A program made the position numbers and the translations under genes. This document shows positions 47,518 to 51,409 of a stretch of DNA of 64,000 nt, piece by piece. The DNA is from Albugo candida. Lineage: Eukaryota. The stretch's first letter is position 1; every line of letters begins with the position of its first letter. The notes beneath the pieces were generated by a model. It was given only the letters and a program-made list of their open reading frames with translations. It was not told the origin of the DNA and searched no databases. The stretch is taken from positions 372,001-436,000 of the forward strand of contig JBDOQK010000020.1 of NCBI GenBank assembly GCA_040437565.1, in the 5' to 3' direction.

Positions 47518-49127
47518 TCATTTAGCTGACGGCAAGTGTTCTTTGTCCCCACACTCGGCAAGCCACTCTTTGCAAAGTATAAAGATGTAACCCTCAATTG
47601 CATGCAAGCTTTCTTTACGAAGTAAGACTGGCTCCTGCGTAACGATTCGGAACCCTGTCTGCCGCGAGAGCTGTGTGATGTACGCAATTGAATGCTGAAA
47701 TCGTCCGGAAGTCGCAAGTTTGACCCCATCAGTTCCAACTGAAAGAACTTCAATGGAGAAAATAAGCCATCCACCATTCTCAAGCGCGTTATGACATAAT
47801 GCGAAAGTTTCTTCCAATACGCCTACATAGATCCATACATCTGCAGCGACGATGAGCTGCAATCCGTTTGGGATCTGTTTCTGTAAATACGGAACAAGAC
47901 TGGTTTCTTGAGAAAGCCAGCATCAATCAAGTGCGTCTTCACTTGAAAAAGATACACAATACCTTGCAAATCATCGTAGACACCTGTAGCCCGAGCTTTC
48001 CAAATCATTTTTGAAGATAGGTCGACCTACAAAAGATACTTTAATCAACATCCAGGCACCCAATTTCCATAAAGCATACCCCGATAAGTCTAGATGCAAA
48101 CCTTCTAAGGAGCTTTCCACACAAACCAGTACCACAACCAACATCCAAAATGCAGAGTTTTTGCGAAGCTACCTTTGGCTCATGTTTCAACAAAACATCC
48201 ACAAGCAACCATGGTACTCGATATTCAAGATGATTGACTAATTTATCATCAAAAGTATCGGCCAAATGGTCAAAGACATTCTGAACGTATTCAGGGGAGG
48301 CAGTTTTCGCAGTATTTGTCAATGATGCAAGCCAGTGCGCAGCATGTACGTGATGTGGACACTCCTGAACGATGTTCTCGTAAGCACGAATAACCGCTTG
48401 TGGTTCAAGTGAGTGACAGATTGACTTCAACACATTGTGCGCCACACTATCCTCATCGTCCATTTTGATGACACGCATCATGTAAGGGATTGAAAAGTAA
48501 TGCTCGTCCAAATTCTGTAAAGTAACACCAAAATTGAAGCTGATCTGCGAAGACATTTTCCAGCGAAAGAAAAGATGTGAAAATGATTGTGCTGCCTCCA
48601 AATAGCAGCCATCTCCAAACAGTTTGTTTGCATTGCTTATCTTCTGTTTCATTTCTTCATCATTTTCTTGCACTCGGTCAATACAGTGGATTGACTCTAA
48701 AATATGAAGAATCCTGCGGGACTCCAAGTGTTCTCGATCAACCATTCGTCCGACTTGATCGAAAATACAAATATGCGGAAGCACTGTGATACGAAAGTCC
48801 TTACAGAGTGTACGAAAAGCGCTGTTCAGAAACGAGATAAGACTCATGATTAGAAATGTTGACTTCTATTTGCAGATACCGAGCACTCAATCGAATCGAG
48901 CTATTTTTCTTTTCTCCGAGTATCCGCAAAAAAGGATCATCGATATGCAAAGTTGAAACTCCAGAAGCATGCTCAACGACGATGCGATAGAGCTGAAGGG
49001 ATATGTTTCTCCTGTTTGATTCCTCAATCTGATCGTCCACCTTGAGCATTATCTCATTGATAATTTCTGGAGAGATCCATTGAGCTGTCCATAAACACAC
49101 ATTAAAATGTGTATCGCGAGAATCCAT
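47518..49127 (-). CDS. TPR-containing class I SAM-dependent methyltransferase (COG4976-like), multi-exon
   Basis: TPR-like helices, YVQNVFDHLADTFDDKLVNHLEYRVP, motif I ILDVGCGTGLCG, ADVWIYVG, GGWLIFSIE and SGRFQHS. Confidence 0.85.
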
Positions 49128-49184
49128 ATTCGTCGTACTTTAAGATCGCATCTACTGATGTACTTATTGTCATCCGTCAAAAGC

Positions 49185-50148
49185 ATGCACTCGATTTTTC
49201 GTCGAGTGCTCTCACCAGCAATACCACAGCTGAGGCAATTCTGTACGTAACACGCATATCGTACGACATCTGCCGAAGTTGACGTTGACACTGTAGCGAA
49301 CAAGATCTATCCTTCTTTTACAGTTTACGAACCTGAAGCAGTGTTTCAGGTCGGACGTAAGACATCCATTCACTAGCTGTTATACTCAACCTGTTCATTT
49401 AGGTGTCTCCTATCCAGCCAGAATACGTTCAGCAATCAAACTATTTGAAGACGAAACGAGTGGTATGATAGTGAGACCGAAGAGTACACTTTAGCTAATC
49501 CTACAATCTATCTATGAAGGGCTCATTACTCTTGTCTTGGGCAAAACAACGCGATGGAAGCTACGATTACACAAAAAAATTGGTACTTTTGGCTTTAATT
49601 GATGCACTTGGAGATCCATCCCAATTTGCATTTTAGTACTTTGCACTTACGCCATCAGAAATCGGACTTGTTCTAGAAGTCCTGGATTCCAAAATTGGCG
49701 AAATAACTATCACGCATACTCCGAATCGAAATGATCAAACTGTTCAAACAACTGAGAGAATACTGAGAGTCTTTTCTCCACAATCTTCGAATAGCTCAAC
49801 TTCTCGTACAAAGTTTGAACTAGCCGGTGATTTTGATGCTACAACTACGCTCAGCACGGGCGAGACACGAGTTTTAAAGGTTTCGTGTATGGTAGTGAGA
49901 TTAAAAAGAGGATTCTGACGGAGTGTACTTGTTAGGAATTGCTCACATACTGTTTACCAAGATTGTATGGCTTTCATTCCGTACTGGAGGGCCCCTTGTA
50001 CGTACATTGTTGATCTCTTCGTACTTTGTGAGTCAAAATTCCGTGTCCTAGAAACATCGGAACGAGTTCTCCCCAATCCAATCAAAGTGGCAACCAGAAT
50101 CGACCGAGGAGTTCTCAGACATCTCAAGCTGGTGAATGGCCTTTTTAA
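49185..50148 (+). CDS. Whirly-like ssDNA-binding protein with probable mitochondrial presequence; 7 exons (49185-49242, 49297-49349, 49403-49462, 49520-49582, 49637-49879, 49936-49997, 50052-50148), 211 aa
   Basis: Six GT-AG introns of 53-57 nt give a continuous frame: MHSIFRRVLSPAIPQLRQFSNKIYPSFTVYEPEAVFQVSPIQPEY..KTKRVGSLLLSWAKQRDGSYDYTKKLYFALTPSEIGLVLE..STGETRVLKELLTYCLPRLYGF..AGEWPF. Confidence 0.8.
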
Positions 50149-50295
50149 GAGCAAGATGGAAGAGTTTGAGTCTAGCAAAAAAGAATATATCAACTTCACC
50201 AAAAAGGCGTGCAAGGCCCTTATCTAAAGCTTGATCTCCGACAATCTAGAGTCTGATGATTGGCCTGAACATGACTCATTGACTACTAATGACTT

Positions 50296-51409
50296 TTAAA
50301 ACGTGATTTGTGCTCCATAGCCAAATTTGAAATCACTTTTGGCTGGAAACGCTTCTGCGGCCAGTGTAAGTAGAAAGTTGGGTAAAACATGCGTTTCCAC
50401 ACTGGATGCAACGCGACCGGTCTGATCCAATGACATTGAGAGCCGGGAAGCGCCTATTTCGAATTGACCTCCCATTGTGGCATGCGATTCTCCACTATGA
50501 TGATTGTAGGTCAACTCGGAACCATATTTCATTCGGTGACCTTGGATCTTACGCAGATATTGCAGCTGTAAAGTTCCTCCAGCTCCGGCGGTGCCAGCCG
50601 CAACCCAGTCATCCGCCGTATATCGTGCACAATACGCTGCTACAACTTTAACGTGTTCCCCGTGGAAGTAAGCTTCCCCTCCTAGAGCCAAACGTTTCGT
50701 CAGACTTTGGAAATATGACACTCCATATAGAGGTCCATTCGCTATTTTCATATTACAGCAAAAGTCTCGACCCATGTAGTCTAGATCAGCGAGTACTTGG
50801 CTCTCACCACCTCCTCCTTCGGAGCGTGAAGAATTAGATGAGTCGGGCTTGAGTTGCCCCTTTACTCTTAGCTTCCAATTCGATGAAAGGCGTTGATTCC
50901 AACGAGCATCCAGGAATCCATCTGGTGTGATTTTGCTCATCAAAAATGTCGAAGGATCCATTGGGTCCTCTGCGACCACGTTCGCACCAAATTGATATAG
51001 ACCTCCTGGGATCATTGACGTTCCGAGTAATATGGAATGCGAAGTGGAGAACTTTTGCCCCAATATTCGTGTGAACTCGAATCGAAATCCATCGAAAACG
51101 TCCACACTCACTGGTCCTTTCAGCTCATTAAGAGCATTTTCATAAAGTCCAGGATTCGGTAACTGATCACGTTCCTTTTCTATTGACTCCACCTGCTCAA
51201 CGAGCACCGGAAGGTTGTCCAAAGAATGAGAAGCTTCGCCAAAATCCTAGTAGAAAAACATCAAATTTGCGCAAAAAGATTTCTCACGAGAAATTCTTCA
51301 AGCATACATTATTGGTTGAGCTTATAGCCAGCACTGGAAAGCGTTTTGAACTATACGGTTTCGATTGAGTTTCGTGCGAAGCAGCCGCTTTGCTCGAGAT
51401 CGCACCCAT
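50296..51409 (-). CDS. TOM40: Mitochondrial import receptor subunit TOM40; intron 51247-51307
   Basis: LPNPGLYE, FDGFRFEF..FSTSHS, YQFGAN, SYFQSLTKRLALGGE and C-terminal FKFGYG. A phase-0 intron links an MGAISSK exon. Confidence 0.9.

Follow-up and report, generated by a model that had tools for sequence, protein, structure and literature searches.

The way in which plant Whirly proteins hold single-stranded DNA (ssDNA) has been described (PMC7549692), and reviews term the family 'plant-specific' or 'unique to plants' (PMC9070903, PMC6963530). According to one model, Whirlies were gained in the early green lineage (PMC4166229). In the KGKAAL motif of the plant proteins, the second lysine is described as necessary for the formation of 24-mers (PMC3245945), and the Whirly-like proteins of green algae and of the liverwort Marchantia are described as also being without this motif (PMC9070903). 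Plant Whirlies end in a disordered acidic/aromatic stretch, according to a review in which that stretch is already likened to the tail of SSB, a bacterial protein that binds ssDNA (PMC6963530). In potato WHY1, the C-terminal residues Glu271 and Trp272 are stated to contact Lys188 and to damp DNA binding (PMC9070903).

Here we describe a gene of the oomycete Albugo candida that lies in a window of 64,000 nucleotides (contig JBDOQK010000020.1, positions 372,001 to 436,000 of the forward strand; all coordinates below are those of the window). The reading that we prefer, and that we consider likely, is of a nuclear gene for a mitochondrial, tetrameric, ssDNA-binding Whirly protein of 211 or 220 residues with an acidic/aromatic tail.

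A spliced and transcribed Whirly-family gene

The gene occupies 49185..50148 of the + strand. Its seven exons are separated by six introns, each 53-57 nt long and bounded by GT..AG (Table 1), which is the arrangement that a sequence-only reading had proposed. Our splice model reproduces that frame, in which the exons sum to 636 nt and encode 211 aa plus a stop codon. Because no single + strand open frame here exceeds 93 aa, the gene was missed by the list of open reading frames, and the earlier reading had called it hidden. In fact it is not hidden, since a public protein of Albugo candida (P0001, 220 aa) matches the spliced frame without a difference over its residues 10-220, and the public annotation already has exactly the same splicing. 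The public model differs in starting 27 nt upstream, at ATG 49158, which places nine residues before the Met of ATG 49185. Translation may begin at ATG 49185 (211 aa) or at ATG 49158 (220 aa). Position -3 is an A at the former and a C at the latter, and the 5' ends of the spliced contigs (49171, 49178 and 49195) all fall short of 49158, contig ends being a weak hint only.

Evidence for splicing comes from assembled contigs rather than reads, from runs whose kind was guessed ('RNA?'); runs X1 and X2 belong to one study and X5 to a second. All six joints are present in the X1 and X2 contigs. The X5 contigs contain joints 1, 2, 3 and 5, and their loose ends fit joints 4 and 6. In X10, a DNA-like run, the stretch is unspliced within one 41,276-nt contig that has none of the six joints. 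Joint 4 is reported in X1 and X2 as 49582>49639 with 'TT' between, and an X5 loose end fits the same junction; we read this as the canonical 49582/49637 junction plus one substitution at 49638. Two studies thus supply runs whose spliced contigs contain the proposed junctions, and the Albugo candida Whirly gene is real, spliced and transcribed.

The neighboring gene encodes TOM40 and lies tail-to-tail with the Whirly gene, as had been claimed, the two stop codons being 147 nt apart. The spliced X1 and X2 contigs continue through this convergent gene.

Table 1. Features of the Whirly gene and its convergent neighbor, in window coordinates
Feature	Position	Strand	Description
possible 5' extension of exon 1	49158..49184	+	public model starts at ATG 49158, +9 residues
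exon 1	49185..49242	+	start codon; N-terminal extension that is basic, has no acidic residue and ends R-Q-F/S, slash marking the possible cut (putative mitochondrial presequence); joint 49242>49297 in X1, X2, X5
intron 1	49243..49296	+	54 nt, GT..AG
exon 2	49297..49349	+	first Whirly-domain strands; YEPEAVF where plants have YKGKAAL
intron 2	49350..49402	+	53 nt, GT..AG; joint listed as 49347>49401, cut +2
exon 3	49403..49462	+	Whirly domain; oomycete-invariant Y-L-K-T-K-R stretch
intron 3	49463..49519	+	57 nt, GT..AG; cut +1
exon 4	49520..49582	+	Whirly domain
intron 4	49583..49636	+	54 nt, GT..AG; X1/X2 join 49582 to 49639 with 'TT' replacing bases 49637-49638
exon 5	49637..49879	+	81 codons; helix 1 and second beta-sheet of Whirly domain; 100% identity to P0001
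intron 5	49880..49935	+	56 nt, GT..AG; cut +2
exon 6	49936..49997	+	C-terminal helix-loop-helix, predicted tetramer interface
intron 6	49998..50051	+	54 nt, GT..AG
exon 7	50052..50148	+	disordered Ser/Asn/Gln/Gly-rich linker, terminal G-E-W-P-F, stop TAA 50146-50148
last large exon of convergent TOM40 gene	50296..51246	-	Porin_3 2.5e-36; 9/9 PDB matches TOM40

Domain, motif and tail across oomycetes

The public protein passes the Pfam Whirly profile PF08536, scoring 39.5 bits where the gathering cut-off is 23 (E 6e-10), the match aligning residues 38-134 with positions 1-97 of the 136 in the profile. Whirly is the sole Pfam family that the full protein matches at E up to 1; the single exons match nothing in Pfam at E up to 10, and the full public protein alone passes. 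A profile built from 15 oomycete sequences matches 6/6 plant Whirly chains in the PDB and nothing else. The best of these matches is to p24 (1l3a; 5.9e-16, profile positions 15-183 on chain residues 23-195), and those to StWHY2 (3n1h; 1.3e-15) and AtWHY2 (4kop; 7.5e-14) extend across the whole domain. HMMER alignments to the same three proteins reproduce the conserved blocks that the sequence-only reading had matched to plant Whirlies. By Pfam threshold, profile match, predicted fold and predicted tetramer, the Albugo candida protein is a member of the Whirly family. The family is a known one, and within it this uncharacterised protein is ordinary.

Orthologues are widespread among oomycetes. 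We found them in Albugo, Phytophthora, Peronospora, Pythium, Lagenidium, Saprolegnia, Achlya and others, with PF08536 in 14/14 near-length matches and in 29 of the 34 profile matches, these matches being throughout oomycete or unnamed proteins, and some are already named 'whirly' ('whirly isoform 1') in public records. In seven of 40 public models the sequence continues into 'V...' directly after the R-V-L-K/R position, as expected from read-through of a GT donor, and the position of intron 5 appears from these sequences to be conserved in other oomycetes. Whirly in oomycetes seems to have had no earlier study: among the matches listed, whose titles and abstract openings were covered, the literature on oomycetes, Phytophthora mitochondria and protists contained no study of an oomycete's own Whirly, and a search for PITG_13252 found no paper.

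One difference from the higher-plant proteins is at the KGKAAL motif. The HMMER alignment places plant YKGKAAL over Albugo YEPEAVF, which confirms the acidic replacement that had been noticed by eye. This loss is not peculiar to Albugo, as judged from the aligned orthologues, all of which share it: the lysines of the motif are absent in 27/27 oomycete sequences. Albugo has Glu in both places and other oomycetes mostly have Gly and Asp, the position of the second lysine being occupied by D in 21 sequences, E in two, Q in two, S in one and G in one. Because the oomycete, green algal and Marchantia proteins all lack the motif, KGKAAL marks a higher-plant subgroup and not the family.

The C-terminal tail is conserved where it can be compared. 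A Gly/Ser/Asn linker with a [DE]WPF end is found in 24 of 40 stored models, the other 16 being fragments or models that read through an intron. Within these 24 intact C-termini, W, P and F are each invariant, preceded by D in 13 cases and by E in 11. In 19 of the 20 sequences where its length could be measured, the linker spans 29-38 residues; its composition is 25% Gly, 18% Ser and 13% Asn. In the Albugo protein the tail contains two K/R in 32 residues, and residues 189-220 have a pLDDT below 50 and are disordered in the AF2 model. The disordered linker ending in GEWPF that the sequence-only reading described is thus present in the Albugo protein, and its tip is kept in oomycetes. That reading had further likened the tail to that of bacterial SSB. 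[quoted passage not shown] Since [DE]-W is shared with plant Whirlies, we favor descent of the tail within the family.

The bacterial tip consists of acidic residues, a hydrophobic residue and a Pro-Phe end (DDDIPF). A bacterial-type SSB identity for the whole protein was considered and rejected, as Whirly is its only Pfam match at E up to 1 and no SSB or OB-fold entry appears among the listed fold matches. The oomycete alignment also has a basic residue that is kept before the sixth strand, for which we do not claim equivalence to potato Lys188.

Assembly, location and competing explanations

The AF2 model, a prediction and not a solved structure, has a pLDDT of 73-94 in every 10-residue block over residues 31-180, and its strands and helices follow the order expected for Whirly. 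With this model as query, plant Whirlies occupy ranks 1-14 among the Foldseek matches listed (E about 1e-11, TM by target 0.67-0.77), and after them come T. brucei MRP1/2 (3e-4) and PUR-alpha. Identity in the structural alignments to plant Whirlies is low, at 16-24%.

The Albugo Whirly is predicted to form a homotetramer through its C-terminal helices. Four copies of residues 30-220 gave a tetramer prediction score of 0.91 against 0.02 for the best of three controls, although the job used four copies and the calibration two, and the score may reflect the model's memory of solved plant tetramers. In the calibration on microbial proteins, the mark was reached by 21/30 solved one-chain pairs and 0/23 single chains; the corresponding values for eukaryotes were 17/29 and 0/30, with only 1/7 among those that have no older solved relative. 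Contacts agree to at least 79% between tetramer runs, and the partner pLDDT is at least 79. The predicted interface consists of residues 93-101 and 160-187, which are helices, and no confident contact is named in the tetramer model beyond residue 194.

The N-terminus was said to be Arg-rich and acid-free, and the first 28 residues of the 220-aa form do contain four K/R and no D/E, resembling a mitochondrial presequence. Across orthologues the extension is 18-31 residues long and variable in sequence, with its character kept. Among 27 orthologue models with an extension, eight are without an acidic residue and in 15 more the last residue before the domain is the sole acidic one; four have long acidic extensions that are probably mis-annotations. 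Most extensions have 3-4 K/R, and basic residues are absent from two of the 27, P0021 and P0032, which are both from Nothophytophthora. The end of the extension reads R-x-F/S in Albugo, Saprolegnia and Achlya, which is the 'R-3' pattern of the matrix peptidase. From this composition and cleavage pattern, the Albugo Whirly is probably sent to mitochondria.

These features suggest the following model. The short basic extension would direct the protein to mitochondria and would probably be cut near R-Q-F/S, leaving about 190 residues. The remainder is predicted to fold into two four-stranded antiparallel sheets with a helix-loop-helix and to assemble through the helices into a homotetramer, which, by analogy with plant WHY2, would hold ssDNA along the sheet edges without sequence preference. 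Stretches of mitochondrial DNA bound in this way could be shielded during replication, recombination and break repair. With neither KGKAAL lysine in place, tetramers would not be expected to pack into plant-type 24-mers in the lysine-dependent way, nor to coat long ssDNA cooperatively in the form found for potato WHY2. The tail, a flexible linker of about 30 residues with the invariant [DE]-W-P-F, may fold onto the DNA-binding surface and damp binding, may recruit partners, or both.

A Whirly-family protein could also act elsewhere or on another nucleic acid. If the extension were no import signal, the protein could be nuclear, like Tetrahymena TIF1 or the nuclear pool of plant WHY1, and bind ssDNA at origins, telomeres or promoters. 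TIF1, by description a distant Whirly homologue, is stated to act in nuclear rDNA replication and the S-phase checkpoint (PMC2377264), and plant WHY1 is stated to have been first found as a nuclear factor (PMC10909546). We regard this location as improbable, because the extension is short (18-31 residues), basic and, the boundary Glu set aside, acid-free in 23/27 models, because it keeps its character despite a variable sequence, as presequences do, and because neither domain nor tail has an evident basic cluster of the nuclear-signal kind. A mitochondrial protein of the same fold might instead bind or anneal RNA, nearer to MRP1/MRP2 or to the RNA roles of plant WHY1. MRP1/2 are indeed the next Foldseek matches after the plant Whirlies (2gia 3e-4, 2gid 4.4e-4), plant Whirlies are described as also binding RNA (PMC9070903), and an Atlas cluster that is commonest in Euglenozoa mixes Whirly (62% of members) with MRP (25%), its score of 0.89 serving as a lead only. 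However, plant Whirlies are much closer (E about 1e-11 versus 3e-4; TM by target 0.67-0.77 versus 0.62-0.68), and MRP1/2 form heterotetramers, whereas the public protein matches contain one Albugo candida family protein, which is predicted to self-assemble; an RNA role is thus quite improbable in our estimate.

The parasitism of plants by Albugo, together with the reviews that term Whirlies plant-specific (PMC9070903, PMC6963530), could suggest a recent transfer from a plant host, with the protein retained to imitate host Whirly, perhaps as an effector on host organelles. Orthologues are nevertheless found outside the plant parasites, in Saprolegnia, Achlya, Thraustotheca, Lagenidium and Pythium insidiosum, and it is on this distribution that we reject the mimic. 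Identity to plant proteins of only 16-24%, intron positions that seem common to oomycetes, and the existence of Whirly clusters in which diatoms and euglenozoans are the commonest taxa also speak against transfer, as does an N-terminus that is basic and hydroxylated and shows no hydrophobic secretion signal by inspection. Transfer of this kind is accordingly a very remote prospect.

The mitochondrial ssDNA-binding Whirly that we prefer could be taken one step further. Whirly, and not an OB-fold SSB, might be the main mitochondrial ssDNA coat in oomycetes, with the [DE]-W-P-F tip as an SSB-style switch that when docked keeps the tetramer off DNA and when released recruits replication or recombination enzymes. 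We think this bolder proposal unlikely to be right as it stands. If it were true, then together with the diatom and euglenozoan clusters Whirly would be no invention of plants, but either an ancient organelle-DNA protein of eukaryotes or something that stramenopiles received from green algae.

Comparison with plant Whirlies and other known systems

A conserved, expressed, intron-bearing orthologue in all sampled oomycete orders shows that the Whirly family also serves a plastid-less lineage. Oomycete Whirlies offer a natural test in which core features (fold, tetramer and tail) can be told from plant additions (24-mer assembly). In practical terms the gene is of modest value: its annotation already exists, it belongs to a known family, and the evidence demonstrates no new mechanism.

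Among described proteins, plant mitochondrial WHY2 (StWHY2, 3n1h; AtWHY2, 4kop) shares with the Albugo protein the Pfam family, the predicted fold (TM by target 0.75-0.77), the predicted homotetramer through C-terminal helices, an N-terminal extension that in Albugo is putatively of organelle type, and, at the C-terminus, a disordered stretch in which an acidic residue stands beside Trp. Unlike WHY2, the Albugo protein lacks the KGKAAL lysines, is shorter (211-220 aa) and bears a W-P-F tip with a free carboxylate on a Gly/Ser/Asn linker; unlike the hosts of WHY2, Albugo has no plastid. Potato p24/PBF-2 (StWHY1, 1l3a) is the best sequence match to the oomycete profile among solved structures, and its C-terminal Glu-Trp is described as touching the domain and lowering ssDNA binding (PMC9070903). 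StWHY1, which is found in plastid and nucleus, has a poly-Gln, transactivation-like N-terminal part that is visible in the alignment, whereas Albugo has neither that region nor a plastid.

Outside plants, Tetrahymena TIF1 resembles the Albugo protein in that distant homology to Whirlies, and binding to origin DNA in single-stranded form, are described for it (PMC2377264), but it acts in the nucleus, unlike the role proposed here, and is likened by description only. The mitochondrial MRP1/MRP2 of T. brucei (2gia, 2gid, 2gje) are described as tetrameric with a Whirly-like fold, as predicted for Albugo, and a review reports for them no sequence homology to plant Whirlies (PMC7549692). They differ from the Albugo prediction in forming a heterotetramer on RNA backbones, and their structural match is weaker, with Foldseek E values of 3e-4 to 5e-3. 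The tip of bacterial SSB, a functional analogue only, shares with the Albugo tail a disordered Gly-rich linker, an acidic then a hydrophobic residue, and Pro-Phe-COOH. However, the DNA-binding domain in Albugo is predicted to have a Whirly fold and not an OB fold, and its tip carries one acidic residue rather than a run.

Gene structure and splicing

In window 49185-50148 on the + strand, the longest single open frame encodes at most 93 aa. Joining seven segments (table) gives a frame of 636 nt, or 211 codons plus TAA, with six introns that are all GT..AG (54, 53, 57, 54, 56 and 54 nt in order). We aligned contigs from four public runs to window 49000-50400, a caveat being that the run kinds were guessed ('RNA?'), none being recorded as RNA, and that contigs cannot reveal starts, ends or levels. 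All six joints are found in one contig each of X1 (1875 nt) and X2 (1898 nt), runs of the same study. Contigs of X5, from a second study, contain joints 1, 2, 3 and 5, and their loose-end letters fit joints 4 and 6; in X10 the stretch is unspliced within one 41,276-nt contig (0/6 joints). Five joints are the model junctions, allowing for the aligner's stated 'cut +1/+2' ambiguity. Joint 4 appears in X1 and X2 as 49582>49639 with 'TT' in between, which we read as the model junction of 49582 to 49637 with one base changed at 49638, turning Tyr into Phe; at that column of alignment A1 most other oomycetes have Phe. The contigs of two studies thus show both the gene structure and its spliced form, confirming the seven-exon frame first proposed from sequence.

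Coordinates of the Whirly gene and its neighbours in the window
Feature	Position	Strand	Basis
Whirly exon 1	49185-49242	+	spliced frame
Whirly exon 2	49297-49349	+	spliced frame
Whirly exon 3	49403-49462	+	spliced frame
Whirly exon 4	49520-49582	+	spliced frame
Whirly exon 5	49637-49879	+	spliced frame
Whirly exon 6	49936-49997	+	spliced frame
Whirly exon 7	50052-50148	+	spliced frame
TOM40 (convergent)	50296-51246	-	Porin_3 2.5e-36; 9/9 PDB matches TOM40
Divergent upstream gene	48041-49127	-	likely ATG near 49127

The gene had also been called hidden, but the public annotation already has exactly this splicing pattern. An exon 5 query matched a public Albugo candida protein of 220 aa, an 'unnamed protein product', with 100% identity; the 211-aa frame is its residues 10-220, and the same exons started from ATG 49158 reproduce it exactly. 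Spliced contigs begin at 49171, 49178 and 49195, and none extends to 49158, which is a weak hint only. The -3 position is A for ATG 49185 and C for ATG 49158, and TCATCC, which we take to resemble the oomycete initiator element, lies at 49170-49175, just where two of these contigs begin (49171, 49178). We lean toward ATG 49185 without claiming it; if transcription does start at TCATCC, the public model begins nine codons too early.

Positions 49637-49638 read 'TT' in the spliced X1 and X2 contigs versus 'TA' in the window, X5 and X10, which would turn the first codon of exon 5 from Tyr to Phe and is either a strain difference or an RNA-level one. At 49573-49579 the window has 7 A and the X5 loose end at junction 4 has 8; taken literally the eighth would shift the frame, but the contig has low depth (9.4) and a homopolymer error is the probable cause. 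The window also has ten scaffold gaps of exactly 100 N each, all within 3707-43327 and none near the gene.

The tail-to-tail TOM40 neighbour was borne out by its Porin_3 and PDB matches. The two stop codons are 147 nt apart (50149-50295), and single spliced contigs of X1 and X2 extend across both genes, whose convergent transcripts may overlap at their 3' ends; the pairing of TOM40 with a second, probably mitochondrial gene is possibly chance. The first Met of the TOM40 frame is residue 78 and an acceptor-like ...CTACTAG precedes the frame (51247-51260, - strand), so the gene should have one or more exons further upstream. On the other side, the likely ATG of the divergent gene and the Whirly start candidates are separated by only some 30-58 nt, and the contigs of these two genes do not overlap, stopping at 49150 and 49171. 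Its ORF 48041-48865 contains L-D-V-G-C-G-T-G, presumably SAM-methyltransferase motif I; a Pfam search of this ORF gave no match at E up to 0.01.

Family membership, fold and predicted tetramer

The 220-aa protein matches Pfam Whirly (PF08536) at 39.5 bits against a cut-off of 23 (E 6e-10). A profile built from alignment A1 (15 oomycete sequences) matched six distinct PDB sequences across the whole domain, all plant Whirlies: p24/PBF-2 (5.9e-16), AtWHY2 (1.3e-15), StWHY2 (7.5e-14 and 1.2e-13), AtWHY1 (1.6e-10) and AtWHY3 (2.1e-10). These alignments recovered the blocks that the sequence-only reading had matched to plant Whirlies from recall, and membership in the family is shown at the level of profiles.

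In the AF2 model (mean pLDDT 71.4, pTM 0.63), roughly residues 30-188 are ordered, pLDDT falls below 50 at residues 1-29 and 189-220, and strands and helices come in the order expected for a Whirly. Plant Whirly structures fill ranks 1-14 of the Foldseek matches listed (E 7.8e-12 to 2.1e-10; TM by target 0.67-0.77); T. brucei MRP1/2 (3e-4) and then PUR-alpha (about 2e-3) come next. Four copies of residues 30-220 scored 0.91 as a tetramer versus 0.02 in the best of three controls, with contact agreement of at least 79%, partner pLDDT of at least 79, and a predicted interface at residues 93-101 and 160-187, which are helices, as in plant tetramers. In calibration, which used two copies where our job used four, the mark was reached by 21/30 microbial one-chain pairs and 0/23 solved single chains, and by 17/29 and 0/30 eukaryotic ones, with only 1/7 among those without an older solved relative. 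Because plant Whirly tetramers are already solved, the pass may reflect memory; the score shows likeness to plant tetramers, not binding. Fold and tetramer are predictions of the models.

Oomycete relatives and the N-terminus

All 14 proteins from a near-length search carry PF08536, and the source records of three of them (Phytophthora cinnamomi, Plasmopara halstedii and Globisporangium splendens) use the name 'whirly isoform 1'. A profile search returned 34 proteins, 29 with PF08536, from Peronosporales, Pythiales, Lagenidium, Albugo and Saprolegniales (Saprolegnia, Achlya, Thraustotheca); all named matches are oomycetes (6/34 unnamed), and the search was word-indexed, so the absence of plant matches carries no information. 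Of 40 stored public models, seven run on into 'V...' directly after R-V-L-K/R, and in several others the model starts or is interrupted where Albugo has introns 4 and 6. Such sequence comparisons suggest that the intron positions are common to oomycetes and that the gene descended vertically within them; a host-derived mimic is very unlikely. As leads only, the commonest taxa of ESM Atlas Whirly clusters include Oomycota (0.92), Bacillariophyta (0.90), Streptophyta (0.90) and Euglenozoa (0.89). The origin may be old eukaryotic, endosymbiotic or by transfer.

Across the family, the 3' exons are systematically mis-annotated. P0006, P0015-P0019, P0021, P0027, P0036 and P0038 are among many faulty public models, truncated or reading through introns after R-V-L-K/R or L-E-G-P-L, with the [DE]WPF end lost.

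The first 28 residues of the Albugo protein have four K/R and no D/E; the sequence-only reading had called this end Arg-rich and acid-free. Among 27 orthologue models with an extension, acidic residues are absent in 8, limited to a boundary Glu in 15 and more numerous in 4, which are either long models whose starts are probably mis-annotated or the two Nothophytophthora models. An extension usually carries 3-4 K/R, but those of the two Nothophytophthora models carry none. R-Q-F|S in Albugo and R-A-F|S-T in Saprolegnia and Achlya fit what we take to be the matrix-peptidase/Icp55 'R-3' pattern.

We propose that the protein would be imported into mitochondria and cleaved, and that it would there protect single strands of mtDNA. 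By analogy with StWHY2, which binds ssDNA along sheet edges independently of sequence (excerpt of PMC7549692), it may bind in the same manner. Rival readings are a nuclear TIF1-like role (PMC2377264) and an RNA-directed role like that of MRP, whose structures follow the plant Whirlies in the fold search.

Departures from and likeness to plant Whirlies

Plant Y-K-G-K-A-A-L pairs with Albugo Y-E-P-E-A-V-F in the profile alignment, so the acidic replacement claimed earlier holds. Both lysine positions lack Lys in all 27 oomycete sequences, the second being D in 21, E in 2, Q in 2, S in 1 and G in 1. In potato WHY2 this second lysine, K67, is required for 24-mers and cooperative binding to long ssDNA and dispensable for the tetramer and short ssDNA (PMC3245945); KGKAAL is also absent from green algal and liverwort Whirly-like proteins (passages of PMC9070903). 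The plant-type lysine-dependent 24-mer would be absent here.

The Whirly family and the gene annotation are already known; the Albugo candida member itself is uncharacterised. No paper about a Whirly belonging to an oomycete turned up in the literature library that we queried, and PMC9070903, PMC6963530, PMC2377264, PMC4166229 and PMC4827209 describe Whirlies as specific to plants or as gained in the green lineage.

An end of [DE]-W-P-F is present in 24/40 stored models, the other 16 being fragments or models running into introns; W, P and F are each invariant (24/24), preceded by D in 13 and E in 11. The linker is 29-38 residues long in 19 of 20 measurable cases (61 in one), is 25% Gly, 18% Ser and 13% Asn, and is poorly conserved in sequence. 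The tetramer model has no confident contact past residue 194. The tail may damp DNA binding, recruit partners, or both.

The sequence-only reading compared this end with the bacterial SSB tip; the EWPF end and linker stand, and a Whirly family motif is a simpler reading than the SSB one. PMC9070903 and PMC6963530 describe a disordered acidic/aromatic C-terminus as a known trait of Whirlies, so the oomycete [DE]-W is most simply that motif, and the terminal Pro-Phe-COOH with its Gly/Ser/Asn linker most simply the oomycete form of it. In potato WHY1, according to extracts of PMC9070903, Glu271 and Trp272 contact Lys188 of the domain, mutating Trp272 increases ssDNA binding, and these residues are said to be conserved across all Whirlies; it is this acidic-Trp end of plant Whirlies that the oomycete [DE]-W appears to match.
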